IMG/VR virus record: IMGVR_UViG_3300029240_000018
Location: 1-45,667 of that record
Reading direction: 5' to 3' (one strand)
From: a virus
Length of the DNA: 45,667 nt
Shown: piece by piece, positions 1 to 45,667 of the stretch
How positions within the stretch are numbered: the stretch's first letter is position 1
How the letters are laid out: every line of letters begins with the position of its first letter
Translations under genes and position numbers: made by a program
Notes under the pieces: generated by a model
What the model was told of the DNA's origin: nothing
The model's database searches: none
What the model saw: only the letters and a program-made list of their open reading frames with translations

Positions 1-99
1 GCACGCAATGACGGCAAAGGAATTAAACGACTTATATAAGAGTTTGGAAAATTTCATTGCTGATTGTACCCGGTCAGAGGTTGACGCCAACCGGGATGC
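1..99. repeat. Terminal duplication. Bases 1-99 are identical to 45569-45667, indicating circular closure or an assembly overlap.
   Basis: Direct comparison of both ends. The string gcacgcaatgacggcaaagg...ccaaccgggatgc is present at both termini. Confidence 0.95.
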
Positions 100-154
100 G
101 CTTAACAAGGTGCAAACCATGATACACCAACGAATGAGATTAACAACAAAATAG
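2..154 (+). CDS. 3' part of a small wrap-around ORF (hypothetical protein, about 56 aa). The 5' part is at 45552-45667.
   Basis: The frame continues from ATG 45552 through the duplicated end to TAG 152-154. Translation: MDKDELHAMTAKELNDLYKSLENFIADCTRSEVDANRDALNKVQTMIHQRMRLTTK. Confidence 0.5.
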   Translation, partial: HAMTAKELNDLYKSLENFIADCTRSEVDANRDALNKVQTMIHQRMRLTTK

Positions 155-162
155 TAATAACC

Positions 163-180
163 GCCGGGGGAAACCCCGGC
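163..180 (+). promoter_or_regulatory. Intergenic GC hairpin (7-bp stem GCCGGGG/CCCCGGC, GAAA loop) followed by CATAAACAATTAGAGCGATG
   Basis: Stem pairing read directly. It is related to the hairpins at 35370 and 38020. No T-run follows. Confidence 0.5.
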
Positions 181-196
181 ATAAACAATTAGAGCG

Positions 197-1642
197 ATGT
201 ATATTAAGAAATTGGAATTGTTGAATTTTCAAGTTATCAAAGAGTTCAACGCAGATTTTGAGGGTAATGTATATTTCATTACCGGGGACAATGAGTTAGG
301 CAAATCAACCCTTTTAAAAGCAATCGGCGCAATGTTGACCGGGAACCGGGACGCCGTGTTGAAAAATGGAGAGGACAAAGGGTTTGCAAAAATGGTTGTA
401 GGTAACGACGGCGAAAATTACGAGGTCGAATTAAAGTTTACCAAAGCCAACCCCCGTGGGACGTTATCCATTAAATCCCAAACAACCGGGATGCGTTCGG
501 ATAACGTTTCTATGTTGCAAAAGATTTTCGGCTACCAAGACTTTGACGCCGTGGAGTTTTCCCGTTGGAGCGAAACCGCCGAGGGACGCCGCAAACAAAT
601 TGAGGTTGTAAAGGCTTTGTTGCCGGAAAAAGTGCGCACCCGTATTGCAGAAATTGACGCCGAGGTTACGACCGTTAAGGACAAAAGAAAAGACGCCAAC
701 GCCGAGGTTAAGACGTACACAACCATTTGCGCCAACGCCGAAAAGCAATTGAAGCCCGGCGACGTCAAAACGTATGCCGAGAAAAAGGATATTACGGCGT
801 TGATGGAAGAGCAAAACGAAAATGCCCGGTTGATTGAGAAAGCGAAAACGGTACGCCAAGCCCGGCAACAAAGGATTGAACAATTGGAGGCAATCCCCGG
901 ACGAATTAAAGAGGCGGAAGAAACCCGAAAAAGTAATATTAAGGCAATCGACGACAAATTAGCCGCCGAGGAAAAAGAAGTTGCCCGGATAATTGCCGAG
1001 GCAAACGCCCGGTTGGAAAAAGCCAAAGAAGATGCGAAAGCCAACAAAAAAGCCATTGAAAACGATTATAAGGAAACGTTGCAAGTTATTGTAAACGACA
1101 AATCCGAGTTTGTGAAACGCAAAGCGAATGCCGACAAATGGTTAGAGGAATACGAAGCCAACAACCCGGAACAATTAGACACGGCGGAACAACTGAAAAA
1201 AGCCGAGGAACACAACCGTATCAATGCGTTGGTTGTGGATTACATGGCAAAGAAGAAACAAAAGGAAGCCGCCGAGAAAACCGCCCGCACGTTTGAGGAC
1301 AAATTAGGCGCATTGGCAAAGGAGCGGGAAACGCTTATTGCCACGTCCAAATTACCGATTGCCGGGCTTTCGTTCACGGACGACGGATTAGAATTAAACG
1401 GCGTGCCGTTCGTCGCCGGGAAAGTTTCAGATAGTCAAATTATGGAGGTTGCCGCCAAATTGATTATTGCAAGCAATCCGACGGTTAAGGTGTTCCGCAT
1501 TGCAAGGGGCGAAAGTTTGGGCGAAAAGCGTTTACAGGCGATTATAGACATTGCAAGGGCAAACGGTTTTCAGGGCTTTATAGAGGAAGTAAAGCGGGGA
1601 CAAACTGATTTAGTTGTTGAGGAATACACGGAAAACGAATAA
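197..1642 (+). CDS. Rad50/SbcC/RecF-type SMC-like ABC ATPase
   Basis: 481 aa with an ATG start. Walker A GDNELGKST near the N-terminus, a long K/E/A-rich coiled-coil middle, a C-terminal signature-like VSDSQ, and a hydrophobic strand ending in acidic residues. Confidence 0.7.
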   Translation: MYIKKLELLNFQVIKEFNADFEGNVYFITGDNELGKSTLLKAIGAMLTGNRDAVLKNGEDKGFAKMVVGNDGENYEVELKFTKANPRGTLSIKSQTTGMRSDNVSMLQKIFGYQDFDAVEFSRWSETAEGRRKQIEVVKALLPEKVRTRIAEIDAEVTTVKDKRKDANAEVKTYTTICANAEKQLKPGDVKTYAEKKDITALMEEQNENARLIEKAKTVRQARQQRIEQLEAIPGRIKEAEETRKSNIKAIDDKLAAEEKEVARIIAEANARLEKAKEDAKANKKAIENDYKETLQVIVNDKSEFVKRKANADKWLEEYEANNPEQLDTAEQLKKAEEHNRINALVVDYMAKKKQKEAAEKTARTFEDKLGALAKERETLIATSKLPIAGLSFTDDGLELNGVPFVAGKVSDSQIMEVAAKLIIASNPTVKVFRIARGESLGEKRLQAIIDIARANGFQGFIEEVKRGQTDLVVEEYTENE

Positions 1643-1648
1643 TAACCG

Positions 1649-1668
1649 GGGGCGGGCTTTCCGTCCCC
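1649..1668 (+). promoter_or_regulatory. Intergenic GC hairpin (GGGGCGG...CCGTCCCC, one bulge)
   Basis: Read directly downstream of the stop at 1642. Only a weak T-run follows. Confidence 0.35.
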
Positions 1669-1683
1669 TTAAAATCTAAAACA

Positions 1684-2832
1684 ATGGCATATACATTGAA
1701 CGATAATTTGAAACGTTGGGCGGAACAATACGAAACCGCCGAGTTTATCCAATCCGACCCGGTGCAAATCCCGCACCGTTACGATAGTCGGGTAAATATT
1801 GAGATTAGCGCATTTGTTACGGCGTGGATTGCGTGGGGTTCCCGCAAACAGATAATCCAAAAGGCGGATTTTATCGACCGGAAAATTTTCAAGGGTGCGC
1901 CGTATCATTACATTGTTGGAACCGATACGCAGGGAACCGCCCCGGAATGGAAGCAATACAAAGGCAGTAAAGAGAATTTTTATAGAACGTTTACATACGC
2001 CGATTTTCACGACCTTTGCGCCCGCTTATTTGACGTATATAGTAAGTTTGAGAACATGGAAAAGGCATTGCAAGCGCAACCGGGCGGGCGTCCATTGGAG
2101 CAATTACAACGTCTTTTCGGCGATGTTAAGGGCGTGCCGGATATGGAAACGAAAAGCGGTTGCAAACGCTTATGTATGTTTTTGCGTTGGATGTGTCGCC
2201 ACGGTTCCCCGGTTGACTTTGGATTGTGGACGATTTGCGACCCCCGTAATTTAATCATTCCATTAGATACCCACGTACATAAACAGGCATTGCGGTTGGG
2301 GCTTGTAAAACGTCGGACGCCGGATTTGCAAACAGCCATTGAGATAACCGACCGTTTCGCCGAGATATTCCCGGACGACCCGACAAAGGGCGATTTTGCG
2401 TTATTTGGTTATGGAGTGAACAACGGTAAGGTTGCACCCGTTACGACGGAACCGGAGCCGGAAAAAGAACAACCAACCGCCGTGGCTGATTTATCAATTG
2501 CCGATGTTTTGAAAATGCGATTGTTTTACGACAATGCCGCCGCCGAGGTTCGGGAAATATGGGAAAGCCGGGAAAAAGCCCGCAAAGAATTGAAAGCGAC
2601 CGAGCGTTTGAAAGCGCACCCAATCGACGGGTTACACAATGCCGGATTGTTGGAGCCGGGCGAATTTGTTGTTACATTCGCAAAGGTATTGGATAAACGG
2701 GAAACGAAGTTATCACGGGCGGAACGGGACGTTATCCATACAATCGGAATGACAGCGTTTAATAAGACAATGAAAAAATTAATAGCCGATGAAAAAGCGA
2801 GAAATAACAGCAACGGGGACAATAAACAATAA
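1684..2832 (+). CDS. TIGR02757/DUF2400-like protein (putative HhH-type DNA-base-processing fold) with a C-terminal extension of about 130 aa
   Basis: 382 aa. The N-terminal 250 aa or so (…AEFIQSDPVQIPHRY…, …CKRLCMFLRWMCR…, …IIPLDTHVH…) match my recollection of the DUF2400 family. The extension after a PEPEKE linker is unassigned. Confidence 0.5.
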   Translation: MAYTLNDNLKRWAEQYETAEFIQSDPVQIPHRYDSRVNIEISAFVTAWIAWGSRKQIIQKADFIDRKIFKGAPYHYIVGTDTQGTAPEWKQYKGSKENFYRTFTYADFHDLCARLFDVYSKFENMEKALQAQPGGRPLEQLQRLFGDVKGVPDMETKSGCKRLCMFLRWMCRHGSPVDFGLWTICDPRNLIIPLDTHVHKQALRLGLVKRRTPDLQTAIEITDRFAEIFPDDPTKGDFALFGYGVNNGKVAPVTTEPEPEKEQPTAVADLSIADVLKMRLFYDNAAAEVREIWESREKARKELKATERLKAHPIDGLHNAGLLEPGEFVVTFAKVLDKRETKLSRAERDVIHTIGMTAFNKTMKKLIADEKARNNSNGDNKQ

Positions 2833-2845
2833 CGGCGGGTTGGCA

Positions 2846-3220
2846 ATGTACATGGGGGAATTAAACGAGTTTTTCAAGGGTTGGAAAGGTTCCCGCATTA
2901 TCGCCCGGTTCATTGTAGCGTCGCCCGGTTCGTCCGAGGCTTTGAAAGGGTATTACTTTAACTATGTTGTACCGACGTTTAAGCACGCAATTTGGGAGGC
3001 GGGCGAACGTCTTACAGAGGAACAAACCGAACGACGTTTGCGGGAATTTTCCCCAATTATGTACGTTGAACGGGTCAACGAGGAAACGGGGGTATATTCC
3101 CACGATTTGCGCACCGTGGCGGATTTGTCGAACGCCGAGTTAATCGAACATATCGAAACGCTCAAACAGATAGCCGCCGAGGAATACAATACATTTATTG
3201 ACGACCCCCGAACGTTGTAG
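2846..3220 (+). CDS. Hypothetical protein
   Basis: The ORF is trimmed to ATG 2846, the first start after the upstream stop at 2832. There is a very tentative resemblance to small NinB/Orf-like recombination mediators. Confidence 0.55.
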   Translation: MYMGELNEFFKGWKGSRIIARFIVASPGSSEALKGYYFNYVVPTFKHAIWEAGERLTEEQTERRLREFSPIMYVERVNEETGVYSHDLRTVADLSNAELIEHIETLKQIAAEEYNTFIDDPRTL

Positions 3221-3222
3221 GT

Positions 3223-3408
3223 ATGTTTTGCAAGTGTAACGGAAAGCGGAAAAATTACCCGTTGGCGGGTTGGCGGATTATCCGCCACGAATACACGCCA
3301 AAGCATTACAGCCGGATAAAGTGTTTGCGATGCGGGTGCGTTTGGATTACACGGGCAAAATATGTTGAACAAACCCCCAACGAGGATGGGCAAAAAAGAC
3401 TTTTTTAG
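3223..3408 (+). CDS. Small Cys-containing (zinc-ribbon-like) hypothetical protein
   Basis: 61 aa with CKC…CLRCGC cysteine pairs, tightly packed between its neighbours. Confidence 0.45.
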   Translation: MFCKCNGKRKNYPLAGWRIIRHEYTPKHYSRIKCLRCGCVWITRAKYVEQTPNEDGQKRLF

Positions 3409-3409
3409 T

Positions 3410-3607
3410 ATGGAATTAAACGACAAATCCCCGATGCCGCAAGGTAAATTTAAGGGGCAACCGATGGAAAACGTACCGTATTGGCATTTGCTTTGGTTAG
3501 AGAACCAACCGTATTGCCGCAAAGATGTAAAACAATACATTGAGGAAAACCGGGACGTTTTGGAATTGGAGAAAAAGCGGGATAAATACCGCAATGAAAA
3601 TGAGTAA
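3410..3607 (+). CDS. DUF3820-like protein
   Basis: Start at ATG 3410. MPQGKFKGQPMENVPYWHLLWLENQ matches the MPFGKYKG…YLLWL pattern of DUF3820 as I recall it. Confidence 0.55.
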   Translation: MELNDKSPMPQGKFKGQPMENVPYWHLLWLENQPYCRKDVKQYIEENRDVLELEKKRDKYRNENE

Positions 3608-3630
3608 TTAACAATTTAATAACCGATAGT

Positions 3631-3882
3631 ATGACAAATGAGCAATTACAGAACGGCGCAAAGTTAGCCGAAAAAATCGACGCATTGGAGGCGCAATTAG
3701 AGGGTTGGAAACGTGCAACATGTTTCATGTATGAAAATGTTACTTTATACTGCAAAGAAGATGGACGGGTTTTTGATAAAATTAAAACGTCCTTTATTGA
3801 TTTTGATGTTATGAAAACTCTAACAATCGCCCGTATTGAGAAAGAATTAAGTAAGTTAAAAACAGACTTTGAAAATTTATAA
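3631..3882 (+). CDS. Hypothetical protein
   Basis: 83-aa ORF with an ATG start and no recognisable motif. Confidence 0.5.
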   Translation: MTNEQLQNGAKLAEKIDALEAQLEGWKRATCFMYENVTLYCKEDGRVFDKIKTSFIDFDVMKTLTIARIEKELSKLKTDFENL

Positions 3883-3886
3883 GGTT

Positions 3887-4693
3887 ATGCAAAAATTTGA
3901 TTTGAAAGATATTTGTTTCTTTGATTGTGAAACAACCGGGGTTCCGGCAAAGGGTTTGAAATGGGATGCGGATTTTGAGCAATTCCCGCACGTCGTCCAA
4001 TTGGCATGGTCGTTTGGCGATAAGGAAAAAAGTTATATAATCAAGCCGGACAATTACGAGATACCCCCGGAAACAACCGCAATACACGGTATAACAACCG
4101 AACGGGCAATTAAAGAGGGCGTACCATTTGCCGAGGTTGTGGACGAATTTTTAGCGGATGCAAACGCCGCCCCGCTTGTATGTGCGCATAACATTTACTT
4201 TGATACGTCGATGTTGAAAGCAAACATTTTGCGCTATTGTGGTAAAGAGTATTACGATGCCAAAGCCGAGGACGCATTGCACAAAGGAAAGCGCATTGAT
4301 ACAATGATGAAAACAATTAAATTTGTCGGCGCATTGTTTGCAAATGGTCGTCCCGGTAAGTTTCCGCAATTAGAGGAATTATATACAAAGTTATTCCCCG
4401 GCGAAACATTCCCGGCGCATGACGCATTAGAGGACATACGGGCGTTGCGCCGTTGCGTCCCGGAATTGGTTAATTTGGGGATTATTGAGTTGGCGCAAAA
4501 GGAATACCCGGCGGAACAACTCAAAGCCCAATTTGAGCCGGAAAAGCCCAAAGGCGGGCGTAATATTGAGTTCCACGACCCCAACCCGGTAACGGAACCA
4601 ATCGGAACCGGGGAACCCGTCCCGGAACCGGAACGCCCGGCGGTTCCGTCGAATAGTAAGACACGGGAATTGTTGGACGAAAACGATTTTTGA
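3887..4693 (+). CDS. DnaQ/epsilon-like DEDDh 3'-5' exonuclease
   Basis: Exo I FFDCETTG, Exo II AHNIYFDTSML and Exo III HDALEDIRAL. The track start at 3869 is TTG and overlaps the previous gene, so ATG 3887 is preferred. Confidence 0.85.
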   Translation: MQKFDLKDICFFDCETTGVPAKGLKWDADFEQFPHVVQLAWSFGDKEKSYIIKPDNYEIPPETTAIHGITTERAIKEGVPFAEVVDEFLADANAAPLVCAHNIYFDTSMLKANILRYCGKEYYDAKAEDALHKGKRIDTMMKTIKFVGALFANGRPGKFPQLEELYTKLFPGETFPAHDALEDIRALRRCVPELVNLGIIELAQKEYPAEQLKAQFEPEKPKGGRNIEFHDPNPVTEPIGTGEPVPEPERPAVPSNSKTRELLDENDF

Positions 4694-4694
4694 A

Positions 4695-5582
4695 ATGGCA
4701 AAGCGAACGAAAGACGAATTTACACGGGATTGGATAATTGAAAATTCCGTTGAGATATTGAGCCGATACGAACCCGGAGTTTTAACAATCCGTGCGTTGC
4801 ATTATCAATTAGTTAGTATTGGCATGACAAACACGTTACAGCACTATAAACGTGTTGTTTCTGCAATGGAGGTTGCCCGATGGGACGGACGGGTTGATTT
4901 TGAAGCATTCAGCGACCGAGATAGGGCAATGTGTGGCGAAACCAAAGCGGAACCAACCGATTTGGAAGAAAAGCAAGACGAAGCAAAAGCGCAGGTTAGG
5001 GCGTGGATGCGTTCGTATCATAAAAACCGTTGGGAAAATCAACCGATTTACCCGGAAATACTGATTGAAAAGAAAGCATTGGAGGGCGTTTTTGCGAAAC
5101 CGTGCCGTAATTGGGACATTGCGGTTGGGGCTTGTAAGGGCTACCCGTCGTTAACATTCTTATTTGAATTGTCGGAACGATTGAGAGAGGCGCAAGCCAA
5201 CGGCAAACAATGCGTTATCCTATATTTTGGCGATTACGACCCGTCGGGGGAAGATATACCCCGGTCGATTGGCGAAAACTTGCAAAAGTTCGGTGTTTTT
5301 GGGGTCGAAATACGACGTATTGCGTTGATGGAACAACAGGTTATCGAATGGAATTTGCCGCCCGCCCCGGCAAAGGAAACAGATAGCCGGACGGCGAATT
5401 GGGACGGATTGGGACAGGTTGAGTTAGACGCCGTAAAACCGGAAAAACTGATTTCCTTATTGGACGATGCAATTAACGAGATATTCGACCGGGAATTATA
5501 CGACGAATTGTTAGAACGTGAAAGCGACGAACGGGAACAATTCCAAACCGAATTAAAACGTTACGTTGAAGATGATTTATAA
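4695..5582 (+). CDS. Topo VI-A/Spo11-like protein (5Y-CAP-like winged helix plus Toprim), 'Topo mini-A'-like
   Basis: 295 aa. R-x-L-H-Y (TIRALHYQL) sits in the N-terminal domain. The Toprim Glu context is ILIEKKALEGVF, and the DxD motif is YFGDYDPSGEDI. Confidence 0.6.
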   Translation: MAKRTKDEFTRDWIIENSVEILSRYEPGVLTIRALHYQLVSIGMTNTLQHYKRVVSAMEVARWDGRVDFEAFSDRDRAMCGETKAEPTDLEEKQDEAKAQVRAWMRSYHKNRWENQPIYPEILIEKKALEGVFAKPCRNWDIAVGACKGYPSLTFLFELSERLREAQANGKQCVILYFGDYDPSGEDIPRSIGENLQKFGVFGVEIRRIALMEQQVIEWNLPPAPAKETDSRTANWDGLGQVELDAVKPEKLISLLDDAINEIFDRELYDELLERESDEREQFQTELKRYVEDDL

Positions 5583-5589
5583 AACCGAC

Positions 5590-5607
5590 GCCGGGCGGGT
5601 TCCCGGC
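5590..5607 (+). promoter_or_regulatory. Intergenic GC hairpin (GCCGGG-cgggtt-CCCGGC)
   Basis: Read directly after the stop at 5582. Confidence 0.4.
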
Positions 5608-5624
5608 AACAATATTATAATAAA

Positions 5625-6314
5625 ATGAGCGAAAAAGAAAAAGCCGCAAACGTTATGTTGATACCAAGCGAAAAGGCGTTTGCATTGTCGAAAGTCAAGA
5701 CATTAAAGGACGGCGGGTTAGACGTGCATTATGAAGTTACCGAAACAATCGGCAATGAGAGTTACACGAACAAATACCACGTCGAAAGCGCAAAGGACAT
5801 ACACCCCGATTTACGGGATTGTTTCGACCGTTTGCGCCCAATCATGGGACGAATTTTTAATATTACGTCCTTTCTTTCAATGGTTGAAACGTCCGATTTC
5901 AAGGCAACCAAAAAGCAAAGCGAATTATCAAGGGATTTTGCCGACGAAATGTTGAAAAACATAGAGGTTCGGGGCGTGTCCTTTTCCGGTCAAGATGATA
6001 ACGTTGGGGTTGTTTTAACCGGATTGTTTACCGTGTCGAACAATCAAAAAACCGCTATCAATTCCCCCCGCCTTAAATTCAATACGGAAACGTTCGGGTT
6101 TGAGGAAGAATTAGAAGAAATTGCCGCCGACATTGAAACCGAGGTTTACGCATTTCTTTTCAAGGGGAAAAAGGCACAATTGGAGTTGTTCGGGGCTGAT
6201 GGCGAAGCCGCACCCGGATTGAATGCCGAAAAGGTAGAGGATAACGGATTGTTCCCGGACGTTGACGACCCGGCGGACGAAAACGAGGAAAACGACGAAA
6301 CCGGGGATATGTAA
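5625..6314 (+). CDS. Hypothetical protein with a strongly acidic C-terminal tail
   Basis: 229 aa ending in …DVDDPADENEENDETGDM. Confidence 0.55.
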   Translation: MSEKEKAANVMLIPSEKAFALSKVKTLKDGGLDVHYEVTETIGNESYTNKYHVESAKDIHPDLRDCFDRLRPIMGRIFNITSFLSMVETSDFKATKKQSELSRDFADEMLKNIEVRGVSFSGQDDNVGVVLTGLFTVSNNQKTAINSPRLKFNTETFGFEEELEEIAADIETEVYAFLFKGKKAQLELFGADGEAAPGLNAEKVEDNGLFPDVDDPADENEENDETGDM

Positions 6315-6317
6315 GGC

Positions 6318-6779
6318 ATGGAACCGTATTTGCTAACAGACCGGGACGAATACAATTATTGCATCCAAAGGGGGTATAATCCCCTTTTGGATTTGCGTAA
6401 TTTCCGCATGGATATTCGTTTGAGGGTTGAGATACAACGGGAGTTGTTCGGGCATTGTATTACGGGGCGGGGCGCAAATATCATGGCGGCAAATGAACGC
6501 TTTTTCCGTTGGGTTTGGGAACATAAGCCGCACCGATGCGAGGAATGTTTAAAACCATTGCGGAATTATTCCGCCGTGTATTGTTCCCATATTTTAACCC
6601 GTGGAGCATTCCCGGAGGCGGCGCACGATGCAAGGAATATAAATATACTTTGCTTTGAACACCACAACGAATGGGAAAACGGCAATAAAACCAAAATGCG
6701 TATTTATCCCGGAAATGTGAAAATAATAGAGTTAATTAAAAATGAATATGGAAGTTTGGAAAGAGATAGACGGTTATAA
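6318..6779 (+). CDS. HNH endonuclease
   Basis: CEEC…CSHIL…HDARNINILCFEHHNEW gives a CxxC plus H-N-H arrangement. Confidence 0.7.
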   Translation: MEPYLLTDRDEYNYCIQRGYNPLLDLRNFRMDIRLRVEIQRELFGHCITGRGANIMAANERFFRWVWEHKPHRCEECLKPLRNYSAVYCSHILTRGAFPEAAHDARNINILCFEHHNEWENGNKTKMRIYPGNVKIIELIKNEYGSLERDRRL

Positions 6780-7155
6780 CCAACGTTACGAGGTTAGCAA
6801 TTACGGGCGGGTTCGTTCTAAAGATATGGTTGTAAATGGACGGTTACAGAATTGCCACAAAATAAAAGGGCGAATATTAAAACCGTACACGGATAAAGAG
6901 GGATATAAGGGCGTTGTACTCTGTATTAATCAAAAACGCAAAACGTTTCGATTACATAGATTAGTTGCGGCGGCTTTCATTCCGAACCCGGACAATTTGC
7001 CGGAAATAGACCATATCGACGGCAACCGAGCCAATAACGATACGACTAATTTACGTTGGAGTACCCGCAAACAAAATTCCAATAATCCAATAACCCGCAA
7101 ACGGGTTGCATTGTCTAAAATGGGACAATTGAACCCACAATATAAAGGCGAATGA
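6742..7155 (+). CDS. NUMOD4/HNH_3-type homing endonuclease
   Basis: WKEIDGYNQRYEVSNYGRVRS is NUMOD4-like. HRLVAAAFIPNP…EIDHIDGNRANNDTTNLRW is HNH_3-like. Confidence 0.85.
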   Translation: MNMEVWKEIDGYNQRYEVSNYGRVRSKDMVVNGRLQNCHKIKGRILKPYTDKEGYKGVVLCINQKRKTFRLHRLVAAAFIPNPDNLPEIDHIDGNRANNDTTNLRWSTRKQNSNNPITRKRVALSKMGQLNPQYKGE

Positions 7156-7505
7156 GAACAAAAAAGAGAACCCCCGATTTTGGGGCAATTTCCCGGTCAT
7201 CAATCAAAAAAGACTTTCAGAGGGTACAAAGATACCCCGCCGAGGAAAAACGCCCTCAAATCGAAGAATTGCCAAAAATAAACGCCGAACGTCGCATTAT
7301 CCATATATCAGAAACGAGCGCATACGCCAAGTTTGCCCGGTACATTGTCGGTAAATTGGTACGCCTCAAAGAAAAAGCGAACGTTGGCGGCAATTCATGG
7401 TATTGCGAGTTTGTACACGACGACGACCGGAAAGCCTTAAACATGGCGGCGGGTTGGTCTGATAATAAGAAATTGTATTTGTTAGATGGAATTAAATTCA
7501 AATAA
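7152..7505 (+). CDS. Hypothetical protein
   Basis: 117 aa with an ATGA overlap to the upstream stop. Confidence 0.5.
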   Translation: MRTKKRTPDFGAISRSSIKKDFQRVQRYPAEEKRPQIEELPKINAERRIIHISETSAYAKFARYIVGKLVRLKEKANVGGNSWYCEFVHDDDRKALNMAAGWSDNKKLYLLDGIKFK

Positions 7506-7507
7506 TT

Positions 7508-7921
7508 ATGAGTGTAAATAAAGTTACTTTATTGGGGCATACAGGAAAAGCCCCGGATTTTAAGGAGTTCGACAACGGCGGTTGCGTTGCGACCTTTTCG
7601 TTGGCAACCACGAAACGAGGGTTTACGACAAAGGACGGGCGGCAAATCCCGGAGCGTACCGAATGGCATAACATAGTATTGCAAAATGGTTTAGCAAAAG
7701 TTGCCAATCAGTACGTCAAAAAGGGCGATAAACTTTATATTGAGGGAGAATTAAGAACCCGGAGTTATGACGATGCGCAAGGCGTGAAACGATACATTAC
7801 CGAGATTGTCGCAACCGATATGGAAATGTTGACCCCGAAAACAACCGGAGCCGGAACGCAAGCCCCGCCAACCGCACCGCCCGCACCCGCCCCGGAACCG
7901 TCGGACGATTTACCGTTTTAA
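7508..7921 (+). CDS. ssb: Single-stranded DNA-binding protein
   Basis: OB-fold N-terminus MSVNKVTLLGHTGKAPD…TEWHNIVL, a Pro/Ala-rich linker, and the acidic tip DDLPF. Confidence 0.9.
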   Translation: MSVNKVTLLGHTGKAPDFKEFDNGGCVATFSLATTKRGFTTKDGRQIPERTEWHNIVLQNGLAKVANQYVKKGDKLYIEGELRTRSYDDAQGVKRYITEIVATDMEMLTPKTTGAGTQAPPTAPPAPAPEPSDDLPF

Positions 7922-7933
7922 TCTGTTTGAGTT

Positions 7934-8773
7934 ATGGGAGCGATAAACGGACGGGTTATTTACAGCCCAAAAGGAAAAGCCGGGGAATATGCCGAGAACG
8001 CCGCCAATTTTTACGTTGGTTGTTCCAACGGATGCACGTATTGTTATTTGCGCAAAGGGCGGGGCGCAAAAGTGTTGGGCGGCAATACCCCGGAATTGAA
8101 AAAGACATTACGGGAATATCCATACGCATTGGATATATTTACGAATGAGTTGTTGAAGCATAAGGACGAATTGCAAAAAACGGGGTTATTCTTTTCGTTT
8201 ACAACCGACCCGTTATTGCCGGAAACGCAAAGGTTGACCCGCCAAGCAATCGGCGTTTGTCAACGCCACGGCGTCCCGGTTAAGGTATTGAGTAAATGCG
8301 CCGAGGGTATCAATATTTTAATCGACTTTGCCGAGGCGTCCGAGGGTTGGGATAAATCCCGCATTGCCATTGGTTCCACGTTGACCGGGTGCGACGAATT
8401 GGAACCAAAAGCAAGCCCAAACCGGATGCGTATAAACGCATTGGCACGGGCGAAACGCCACGGGTTCCGTACCTTTGCAAGCGTTGAACCAATCCCCGTG
8501 GGAATGTTTGACCGGGCGTTTTCTGTAATTGCTTTGTCGTACCCGTTTGTTGACTTGTTTAAGATAGGGTTGCAAAGTGGTTGCAGATATACCAAGCGGG
8601 AAACATTGATGTTTTACAACGACGTGTTCGACTATTGGGAGGCGCACCCGAACAAAACGCCCCGGATATATTGGAAAGATAGTTTTGTTAAGGCGTCCGG
8701 GATTGAACGGGAAACATTACCCGGTTATTGTGTCCCGGCTAATTATAATTTATTCGACAATGGCAGAACATGA
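7934..8773 (+). CDS. Radical SAM protein, SPL/'DNA repair photolyase' (COG1533)-like
   Basis: CX3CX2C cluster in YVGCSNGCTYCYLRKG near the N-terminus. At 279 aa, its size and layout resemble SplB-like enzymes. Confidence 0.65.
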   Translation: MGAINGRVIYSPKGKAGEYAENAANFYVGCSNGCTYCYLRKGRGAKVLGGNTPELKKTLREYPYALDIFTNELLKHKDELQKTGLFFSFTTDPLLPETQRLTRQAIGVCQRHGVPVKVLSKCAEGINILIDFAEASEGWDKSRIAIGSTLTGCDELEPKASPNRMRINALARAKRHGFRTFASVEPIPVGMFDRAFSVIALSYPFVDLFKIGLQSGCRYTKRETLMFYNDVFDYWEAHPNKTPRIYWKDSFVKASGIERETLPGYCVPANYNLFDNGRT

Positions 8774-9080: not shown

Positions 9081-9576
9081 CAACAAAGGTTATAAACCGA
9101 AATTGCACGACCGTTGGCGTGCATTAACCGTTAAAAATCCGTATGCAACGCAGTTGGTAACGGCGGCGTATGAGGACAACGGGATTGTTTACGGCGAAAA
9201 ATGTATTGAGGTACGAAGCAAAAACACGCCGTACCGGGGCGATTTAATGGTTTGTTCGTCCGCTAATCCCGTAATTCCGGGATATGAAAACGGGGTAACG
9301 TTGGGATTGGTTGAGTTGTACGACGTTAAGCCCGTCGCCGATTTCACCCCCGAAGATTGGGAAAATACCCGCATACCGCCCGAAAAACGTAAGTCAATAA
9401 CAAAGGGGTTCGGTTGGATGATGCGGAACCCCCGCCGGGTTGTTGAGTTTCCAATTAAGGGGCAATTGGGTATTTACAATTTGGTGTACACAAAGGGCGT
9501 AATAACTGAATACCCACGGGCGTTGGTAGTTGACAAAGAGAGTTACGAATTATTAAACAGAAAAGGCAATGAGTAA
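9070..9576 (+). CDS. ASCH (PUA-like) domain protein
   Basis: ALTVKNPYATQLV…GEKCIEVRSKNTPYRGDLMVCSS…GLVELYDV…GFGWMMRNP…KGQLGIYNL is the typical ASCH pattern. Confidence 0.65.
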   Translation: MQYNNKGYKPKLHDRWRALTVKNPYATQLVTAAYEDNGIVYGEKCIEVRSKNTPYRGDLMVCSSANPVIPGYENGVTLGLVELYDVKPVADFTPEDWENTRIPPEKRKSITKGFGWMMRNPRRVVEFPIKGQLGIYNLVYTKGVITEYPRALVVDKESYELLNRKGNE

Positions 9577-9823
9577 AAAGCAAATCGGAATTATCCCGAA
9601 CAATGGCGACGTTCATACGGCGCAAATTGGGGTTCATATCGGACGGGTTGGCGTGTCTGTTTACGTCCGGGAATATTGGAAATATAAGAGTTGGTTTATT
9701 GTTCCCGGCGTGTCCGTGGATGCGGTCAACGGTTACGACCGTTACGTTGACATTGAGGCGAAAATATTATTTGTCGGCATTGGCATACGGTTTATATGGA
9801 TTAAAAGAAAGGTAAAACGATGA
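9569..9823 (+). CDS. Hypothetical protein
   Basis: 84 aa. It overlaps the upstream stop by 8 nt. Confidence 0.45.
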   Translation: MSKKQIGIIPNNGDVHTAQIGVHIGRVGVSVYVREYWKYKSWFIVPGVSVDAVNGYDRYVDIEAKILFVGIGIRFIWIKRKVKR

Positions 9824-37308: not shown

Positions 37309-37324
37309 CCGGGCGTTTTCCCGG
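37309..37324 (+). promoter_or_regulatory. Leader hairpin CCGGG-cgtttt-CCCGG
   Basis: Part of the 20-nt string acgaccgggcgttttcccgg, which is repeated exactly at 45316-45335. Confidence 0.7.
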
Positions 37325-39267: not shown

Positions 39268-39283
39268 CCGGGGGAGTACCCGG
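39268..39283 (+). promoter_or_regulatory. Leader hairpin CCGGG-ggagta-CCCGG
   Basis: It occupies the same position relative to the -7 box as the P1 and P3 hairpins. Confidence 0.55.
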
Positions 39284-45319: not shown

Positions 45320-45335
45320 CCGGGCGTTTTCCCGG
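45320..45335 (+). promoter_or_regulatory. Leader hairpin CCGGG-cgtttt-CCCGG (copy of 37309-37324)
   Basis: Exact 20-nt identity, acgaccgggcgttttcccgg. Confidence 0.7.
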
Positions 45336-45559: not shown

Positions 45560-45667
45560 AGACGAATTGCACGCAATGACGGCAAAGGAATTAAACGACT
45601 TATATAAGAGTTTGGAAAATTTCATTGCTGATTGTACCCGGTCAGAGGTTGACGCCAACCGGGATGC
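45552..45667 (+). CDS. 5' part of the wrap-around small ORF (continues at 2-154)
   Basis: ATG 45552 overlaps the upstream stop. The frame runs into the terminal duplication. Confidence 0.5.
   Translation, partial: MDKDELHAMTAKELNDLYKSLENFIADCTRSEVDANRD

Follow-up and report, generated by a model that had tools for sequence, protein, structure and literature searches.

A gene at positions 4695–5582 of a phage genome was predicted, from the sequence alone, to encode a minimal Topo VI-A/Spo11-like protein with no B subunit. This raises the question of whether the protein is indeed of that kind and, if so, what a catalytic subunit without its partner might do. Two upstream genes, for a Rad50-like ABC ATPase and a DEDDh exonuclease, had been noted as possible companions in a machine of the OLD, Wadjet or Topo VI type split over separate genes. 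The DNA analysed here (the window) is the complete IMG/VR virus record IMGVR_UViG_3300029240_000018, which is 45,667 bp long and has direct terminal repeats (exact, 99 bp). It is a PDS1-like Bacteroidales phage, with 95–96% nucleotide identity to two cultured phages of the gut, Parabacteroides phage PDS1 and Bacteroides phage C1_85S2P; identity to Bacteroides phage BKO1-3 is ∼91% over an aligned part that makes up 31% of the query.

Sequence and fold of the protein

The features of the gene and its product that are needed below are as follows.

4695–5582, + strand: Mini-A gene, 295 aa, ATG start; C-terminal half of a 5Y-CAP domain plus a Toprim domain; A-subunit-only type IIB topoisomerase-like protein
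4791–4805, + strand: R33-A-L-H-Y37, 5Y-CAP domain, with a conserved Arg and the Tyr predicted to be catalytic; M. jannaschii Topo VI-A has TLREAYY at the aligned site
5067–5072, + strand: E125-K126, with the Toprim metal-binding Glu at the end of strand β1, within ILIEKKALEG; invariant (84/84)
5232–5249, + strand: D180-Y-D182-P-S-G185, Toprim DxDxxG metal-binding motif, within GDYDPSGEDI; aligned to DGDPYG of 1d3y
5373–5390, + strand: K227-E-T-D230-S-R232, conserved PAKxTDSR motif, common to Topo VI-A (PLKEQD) in the alignment to 1d3y
5418–5435, + strand: V242-E-L-D-A-V247, T2BI box, a local version of the Mini-A signature xWELDAL

The assignment to stand-alone 5Y-CAP plus Toprim proteins of the Topo VI-A/Spo11 type, the "Topo mini-A" kind (Mini-A), is backed by sequence, profile, fold and literature. 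In PHROGs the protein belongs to phrog_6247, "DNA topoisomerase" (3.5e-64). BLASTP aligns it with gp49 of Pseudomonas phage NP1 (E = 3e-46, 36% identity over 263 aa), and tblastn matches are found in Chi-like Salmonella phages (E ∼1e-29) and in the archaeal virus HCIV-1. Copies 99% identical to the window protein are present in BKO1-3, where the GenBank name is "DNA topoisomerase", and in C1_85S2P, where the protein is annotated as "hypothetical protein"; homologues in nr with ∼83–85% identity are named "MAG TPA: DNA TOPOISOMERASE VI". The family comprises 6568 clusters at 50% identity (E≤1e-3). The original prediction was thus right that such proteins had been noted bioinformatically, but not in the obscurity that it implied: the family has a published name and thousands of members, some deposited in GenBank as "DNA topoisomerase". 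The identity of the protein is already known, from the published family and from the near-identical GenBank copies. The window gene adds no new family, and the useful part of the analysis is the comparative result.

The motifs on which the prediction was based (R-x-L-H-Y, ILIEKKALEG and GDYDPSGEDI) are all present in the 295-aa product. In an alignment of 84 full-length homologues (29–59% identity), the invariant residues are R33, Y37, Y51, D74, R77, E125, K126, G149, S152, D180, D182, G185 and E243, and the family consensus reads LTLRQLYY ... EK.AL ... GDHDPSG.DI ... PAK.TDSR ... WELDAL. Since R33, Y37, E125, K126, D180, D182, G185 and E243 belong to this set, the motifs are not a chance resemblance. 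The candidate catalytic tyrosine, whose lack of conservation had been named in advance as one observation that would count against the prediction, is kept in every homologue (84/84), as is R33, while the preceding position 36 varies (H in 6, Y in 63 and F in 15 of the 84). The PAKxTDSR motif is nearly as well conserved (K in 82/84, D in 83/84 and R in 77/84). In the T2BI box, E243 is invariant, L244, D245 and A246 are each conserved in >94% of the sequences, and W/V and L/I/V alternate. Position 242 is W in 43 and V in 35 of the 84 sequences; QVELDAV is therefore a normal variant of the Mini-A box.

Searches of Pfam, NCBIfam and the PDB with the single sequence gave no match, so that profiles and structure were needed. 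A family profile searched against the PDB ranks M. jannaschii Topo VI-A (1d3y) first, at a marginal E-value of 0.011, and the alignment matches both sites (TLRqlYY with TLREAYY, GDhDpsG with TDGDPYG). The AlphaFold2 model is confident (pLDDT 92.8, pTM 0.81) and consists of an N-terminal helical/winged-helix part and a Toprim α/β core, in which a strand at residues 118–124 lies just before E125. A Foldseek comparison with the PDB had been proposed as a check; its top four matches are all Topo VI-A (1d3y chains A and B, 9o0g chain A and 9o7o chain A), each with probability 1.0, and the rest are noise. The global TM-scores of these matches are low (∼0.3), such that the structural support is local rather than that of a rigid-body superposition. 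Entries 9o0g and 9o7o are M. mazei cryo-EM structures from 2026. A fold search of BFVD returned just a fragment of the same protein and noise, and ten longer homologues (378–461 aa) contain no informative Pfam domain as a fusion partner. Weak Pfam matches among the 84 members are to DUF2399 (24 members), JetD_C (4) and two Topo VI-A models (5 and 7). As the DUF2399/JetD-type models are matched by more members than the Topo VI-A models, the Toprim domain alone does not discriminate between these families.

Neighbouring genes and the search for a partner

A GHKL ATPase domain (Pfam HATPase_c) gave no match at E≤1 in six frames of the complete 45,667-bp record, whereas all control genomes were positive (14/14), which bears out the statement that no B subunit is encoded. 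ATP-driven strand passage is accordingly not expected for this protein. The gene sits in a replication/recombination module together with genes for a NinB-like protein, exonucleases, an SSB, a RuvC-like resolvase and the phage's own replication initiator. The two neighbours singled out in the original prediction are also as described.

197–1642, + strand: ABC/SMC-type ATPase, phrog_1499; matches AAA_15 and AAA_23; best PADLOC match AriA (9e-14)
3869–4693, + strand: DEDDh 3'-5' exonuclease; matches RNase_T (1.7e-10) and PADLOC DEDDh (1e-21); upstream anchor of the slot described below

These two genes could in principle supply what the Mini-A protein lacks. In such a multi-gene system, with OLD, PARIS (AriA/AriB), Wadjet JetABC-JetD and Topo VI as analogues, the protein would be the Toprim/CAP cutting module, the 197–1642 ATPase would replace the B subunit, and the exonuclease would process the ends. 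The arrangement is suggestive: the three genes run in one direction within a tightly packed stretch, and a single nucleotide separates the exonuclease stop codon from the Mini-A ATG. A shared transcript is plausible; a promoter and terminator scan of positions 1–8000, which is not suited to Bacteroides promoters, gave counts at chance level. The best match of this protein in the defence library is the ATPase AriA, whose partner in PARIS is a Toprim nuclease, and members of the Mini-A family weakly match the JetD_C and DUF2399 Toprim models, as noted above.

Comparison across genomes, however, separates Mini-A from the other two genes in both directions. The ATPase and the exonuclease occur in essentially all close relatives of the window phage, while Mini-A occurs in ∼14%; where both flanks are complete, the counts are 60/60 for the ATPase and 9/60 for Mini-A. 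Conversely, of 43 other virus records that carry Mini-A, whole-record searches found phrog_1499 in 9, and of the 24 that are at least 90% complete, in 6. We further surveyed the context of Mini-A in 80 IMG/VR loci fetched via Mini-A itself, three annotated phage loci and the window, which form 59 groups at 75% identity. Within ±10 kb of Mini-A, iterative HMM searches detected the ATPase in 4/59 groups and the exonuclease in 5/59, and no Pfam family recurs among the immediate neighbours of Mini-A in the 59 groups. The presence of Mini-A is also random relative to the ATPase gene tree, on which the 11 carriers require 10 state changes, compared to 9–11 in the first ten label shuffles. The linkage of ATPase, exonuclease and Mini-A is lineage-specific, and the first two are core genes irrespective of Mini-A. 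The comparative data thus largely refute the proposed split machine, and we regard it as very unlikely.

Nor did a broader search reveal another co-inherited gene. No candidate emerged when the window neighbours were sought at the 80 Mini-A loci by tblastn and iterative HMMs, or when 2061 ORFs from the flanks were clustered de novo. Among the 114 genes directly adjacent to Mini-A, no Pfam family had more than 2 members. The flanking genes are a mixture of replication and recombination functions (VapE, SSB, RusA, ligase, Rad52, Sak4-like and others), and the contexts in NP1, the Chi-like phages and HCIV-1 agree with this varied picture. A gene-content comparison of 10 Mini-A-positive and 18 Mini-A-negative genomes (27 further near-complete genomes and the window's own) identified no gene among 214 clusters that co-varies significantly with Mini-A. 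The top non-self cluster, an 84-aa ORF at 9569–9823, is present in 7/10 versus 2/18 genomes (p = 0.003 uncorrected, not significant after correction for 214 clusters). This ORF lies 4 kb from Mini-A, and its association is therefore likely due to linkage. Should Mini-A have a partner, it would have to come from a core gene of the phage or from the host.

An optional cassette in PDS1-like phages

The variable distribution of Mini-A can be followed at a single site. We compared the interval between the exonuclease stop codon and the next conserved gene (orf5625) in 80 close relatives, selected by an exonuclease at least 91% identical to that of the window; most of these relatives come from a single IMG/VR dataset and cannot be counted as independent. 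The downstream boundary of this slot is formed by two features.

5583–5624, + strand: conserved spacer downstream of the slot, AACCG followed by the hairpin GCCGGGCGGGTTCCCGGC at 5590–5607
5625–6314, + strand: conserved gene phrog_9513, downstream anchor of the slot

The contents of the slot in the 80 relatives are:

Empty, with a spacer of 48–57 bp: 62/80
Intact Mini-A: 9/80
Broken Mini-A: 2/80
C5 cytosine methyltransferase, type 1: 4/80
C5 cytosine methyltransferase, type 2, unrelated to type 1: 3/80

Mini-A is thus an optional single-gene cassette in PDS1-like Bacteroidales phages and is absent from most of the close relatives. All cassettes are located between the exonuclease stop codon and the AACCG/hairpin spacer, which is kept (AACCG plus GCCGGG-N6-CCCGGC) in empty, Mini-A-filled and methyltransferase-filled alleles. 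The hairpin after Mini-A alone is not thermodynamically unusual (z = −1.37), and the GC content of the Mini-A cassette equals that of its flanks. Whole-record searches found no Mini-A elsewhere in the genomes with an empty slot, and of the 43 exonuclease-anchored records with a completeness of 90% or more, 4 carry Mini-A.

The same polymorphism is found among deposited phage genomes. Mini-A is intact in the slot of BKO1-3 and C1_85S2P, both of which are cultured. In the deposited PDS1 genome, a 1-nt deletion splits the gene into two ORFs, annotated as "DNA topoisomerase" and "DNA primase". The slot of PD491P1 holds a type 1 methyltransferase, and that of MT836156 is empty. Further decayed copies are seen in G127, where the gene is in two pieces, and in G128, where it is in three pieces with an in-frame stop; some of the broken copies may be assembly errors. 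The dN/dS values between the window gene and the intact copies in relatives are low (0.02–0.15), which indicates that intact copies are under strong purifying selection and functional when present.

These observations bear on whether Mini-A might be a core enzyme of replication or DNA topology, required for normal growth, which would cut the phage genome for rolling-circle or recombination-dependent replication, or relax or decatenate DNA. Such a function would suit the placement of the gene in the replication/recombination module, the replication and recombination genes that likewise neighbour Mini-A in other phages, and the invariance of its catalytic residues; a rolling-circle initiator role in skuldviruses, the sole functional proposal in the literature that we searched, points in the same direction (bioRxiv 10.1101/2021.07.29.453957). 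Several observations argue against it: Mini-A is missing from the whole record in 39 of the 43 near-complete close relatives, PDS1 is cultured and plaque-forming although it was deposited with a frameshifted copy, PD491P1 has a methyltransferase instead, and the phage has its own replication initiator. An essential replication role is therefore unlikely.

A second possibility is that Mini-A is a selfish, homing-type cassette, which would cut the empty-slot allele of co-infecting relatives and be copied in by recombinational repair, in the manner of free-standing phage homing endonucleases. The cassette consists of a single gene placed precisely between two conserved genes, its occurrence is sporadic (11/80) and some copies are decayed, as would be expected of a homing element. 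Free-standing HNH homing endonucleases are abundant in PDS1-like phages, which indicates that homing is active in this lineage. The presence of Mini-A is also nearly random on the backbone and flank trees, implying frequent gain and loss. Trees of the 450 bp on each side of the slot refine this picture. On the left-flank tree, Mini-A requires 7 changes, compared to a minimum of 8 in shuffles, and the filled versus empty state also requires 7, compared to a minimum of 11, i.e. filled alleles share left-flank haplotypes above chance, as the homing scheme would have it. The right flank is indistinguishable from random, and overall the 450-bp flanks are weakly associated with slot content. Against homing, two unrelated C5 methyltransferases, neither of them a homing enzyme, occupy the slot in some relatives, and the site may simply be tolerant of insertions. 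The family is, moreover, large (6568 clusters) and ancient, with an invariant core and low dN/dS, which is unusual for purely selfish endonucleases, and a covalent tyrosine-linked break would be a single-turnover event. On balance, we consider homing quite unlikely. If Mini-A did cut the empty allele, it would be a homing or exclusion nuclease of a new kind.

Proposed role and comparison with known systems

Taken together, the gene is very probably a bona fide Mini-A, i.e. an A-subunit-only relative of Topo VI-A and Spo11, optional in the PDS1-like lineage, for which we propose homodimeric cleavage. The residues needed for tyrosine-mediated, Mg2+-dependent DNA cleavage are all invariant across the aligned family. 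Because the literature that we searched reports no demonstrated function or biochemical activity for any Mini-A, we infer cleavage, dimerisation and formation of a covalent adduct. Like Topo VI-A and Spo11, the protein may act as a homodimer, and it would do so independently of ATP, with Tyr37 of one subunit attacking the DNA beside an Mg2+ ion bound by E125, D180 and D182 of the other subunit. The product would be a protein-linked break with a 5'-phosphotyrosyl bond, reversible or not, and the T2BI glutamate E243 could help to restrain the tyrosine. Strand passage is unlikely without an ATPase gate, and the output is probably a regulated break that would bring a conditional benefit rather than serve a core replication function.

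What this benefit might be can be narrowed by the company that Mini-A keeps. Since its slot is shared with orphan methyltransferases, and the gene is frequently lost and dispensable yet conserved when present, we tentatively propose a role in conflict or host range. Among the possible roles, we tentatively prefer one in phage-host or phage-phage conflict, in which Mini-A may cut host or competitor DNA or counter defence. The more specific form of this proposal is possible but doubtful: Mini-A would be a conflict gene and not a replication enzyme, an ATP-independent, Spo11-like double-strand breaker that is swapped through slots otherwise holding anti-restriction methyltransferases. The enzyme would act on the DNA of the host or of competing phages or on the empty allele, or it would serve to defeat a host defence. 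The main alternative to the conflict role is that the breaks seed recombination; a non-essential stimulation of recombination fits the genomic module.

The conflict role is directly testable with a natural near-isogenic set of phages, in which the gene is intact (BKO1-3 and C1_85S2P), frameshifted (PDS1) or replaced by a methyltransferase (PD491P1). In PDS1-like gut phages, Mini-A can be dispensed with, has no partner and varies between near-identical phages that can be cultivated; this lineage therefore offers a natural system for phage genetics. To our knowledge, no other branch of the Topo VI/Spo11 group is without a known partner, and the question of what Mini-A does dates from 2019. The family bears on how Spo11-type cleavage is controlled without a B subunit and on the origin of type IIB topoisomerases.

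Several known systems share part of this architecture. The Toprim domain is related to that of Wadjet JetD/DUF2399, and PADLOC JetD3 matches the protein over the DxD segment (E = 0.017, residues 171–197, 27 residues). A Wadjet system would show a full-length JetD match together with jetA, jetB and jetC; JetABC genes are lacking here, and the 197–1642 ATPase matches JetC at the P-loop only (2e-5). As far as is known, JetD cuts with its Toprim domain alone, whereas Mini-A keeps an invariant CAP tyrosine. Systems of the OLD/PARIS type have their ATPase and Toprim domains either fused or adjacent and co-inherited, whereas in the window six genes lie between the two and co-inheritance is not observed.

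Topo VI-A and Spo11 are closer. They provide the best structural and profile matches (1d3y, 9o0g and 9o7o), and the catalytic Tyr and Arg, the Toprim E and DxD, the K-x-x-D motif and the T2BI Glu all align. The window protein differs in being ∼100 aa shorter; it is missing the N-terminal half of CAP, through which the B subunit is bound (PMC7671362). Topo VI itself is an A2B2 assembly, and the window genome has no partner B subunit. The T2BI box is R/KxExxA/S in Topo VI and RVELNAM in Topo VIII (PMC7671362). Topo VIII also combines a truncated 5Y-CAP domain with Toprim on a mobile element, and its box begins with V-E-L after the first residue, like that of the window protein. However, Topo VIII is plasmid-borne and has B-type ATPase domains that are fused or adjacent, whereas the window protein has no ATPase domain. 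The RVELNAM box of Topo VIII is accompanied by a conserved R at Tyr+3, while the window protein has QVELDAV and V40 at this position (V in 82/84 homologues).

The closest agreement is with Mini-A as defined by Takahashi et al. (NAR Genom Bioinform 2020, PMC7671362), namely proteins of ∼300 aa with a truncated 5Y-CAP domain plus Toprim and the motifs R-x-x-Y/F-Y, E and DxDxxG, a C-terminal T2BI box xWELDAL, viral encoding and no B subunit. At 295 aa, the window protein contains a truncated 5Y-CAP domain and Toprim with no other Pfam domain. R33-A-L-H-Y37 corresponds to R-x-x-Y/F-Y, with the His before the Tyr as a minority variant (6/84), and E125 is followed by the DxDxxG residues D180, D182 and G185, all invariant. 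The T2BI box is present as QVELDAV, a minor variant of xWELDAL. The gene is encoded by a complete phage record without HATPase_c, and the protein is homologous to gp49 (E = 3e-46) of Pseudomonas phage NP1, the exemplar in Fig. 2 of that study.

Mini-A in the cultured phage PDS1 and other relatives

The cultured Parabacteroides phage PDS1 carries a counterpart of Mini-A, the A-subunit-only Topo VI-A/Spo11-like gene of the window. The two loci align as follows:

5456-6342 of PDS1 (L001, MN929097.1), Mini-A locus
4695-5582 of the window, plus strand, Mini-A

Relative to the window, the deposited PDS1 gene lacks one base in the run GAAAAGAAAGC, after window position ~5078 and shortly 3' of codons E125-K126-K127, which include the Toprim metal-binding glutamate. 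The deletion breaks the gene into two ORFs, annotated as 'DNA topoisomerase' and 'DNA primase'. It is either a true inactivation in the cultured phage or a sequencing error; whichever its origin, the 'DNA primase' annotation is an artefact.

Further decayed copies occur among the relatives, in genomes G127 (locus L054) and G128 (L059), at L091/L018 and at L130. These copies are in two or three pieces, one with an in-frame TGA or TAG, which suggests repeated pseudogenisation of Mini-A, with assembly error as a possible alternative.

Methyltransferases in the Mini-A slot and flanking hairpins

The exact site occupied by Mini-A, between the DEDDh exonuclease gene and the conserved gene orf5625, is filled in other relatives by two mutually unrelated orphan C5 cytosine DNA methyltransferases (four and three of 80 relatives, respectively). 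Representatives are located at:

L087:5018-6070, slot methyltransferase of Parabacteroides phage PD491P1
L125: about 4831-5741, slot methyltransferase (L147 and L159 likewise)

The assignment is based on motifs picked out by eye in the translations, where motifs I, IV (PC) and VI (ENV) were read in both proteins.

Hairpins of the form CCGGG-N(3-9)-CCCGG are found ten times in the window, compared to an expected 1.17:

164-179, hairpin
5591-5606, hairpin
37309-37324, hairpin
39268-39283, hairpin
45320-45335, hairpin
five other sites

Two of these extend to GCCGGG...CCCGGC (163-180 and 5590-5607), with their 3' ends 16-17 nt before the start codons of the ABC ATPase gene and orf5625, respectively. 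The pair thereby flanks, on both sides, the run of genes that begins with the ABC ATPase and ends with Mini-A.

Other genes and genome ends

Two other genes of the window are:

1684-2832, DUF2400/TIGR02757 protein (match 5e-65)
6742-7155, free-standing homing endonuclease (NUMOD4 and HNH_3)

The DUF2400/TIGR02757 protein, named 'N-glycosylase/DNA lyase' in the PDS1 record, has a C-terminal extension of ~135 aa, and its gene overlaps the next (2789-3220, NinB-like, phrog_23774) by 44 nt. It varies between relatives (50–99% identity). The endonuclease family is present at ~2–8 copies per genome in close relatives (eight in G115), in varying positions, as would fit a group of phages whose genomes are extremely mosaic.

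An 84-aa ORF (9569-9823) is found in 7 of 10 genomes with Mini-A and 2 of 18 without it (p=0.003, uncorrected over 214 clusters), an association likely due to linkage or ORF-calling noise. The exact 99-bp direct terminal repeat (1-99 and 45569-45667) is consistent with a complete genome, terminally redundant or circularly assembled.

The ABC ATPase and defence ATPases

The ABC ATPase (197-1642, phrog_1499) is a core gene, present in all 60 close relatives with full flanks. Its top match in the defence library is AriA, the PARIS ATPase (9e-14), followed by PtuA, GajA and LmuB.
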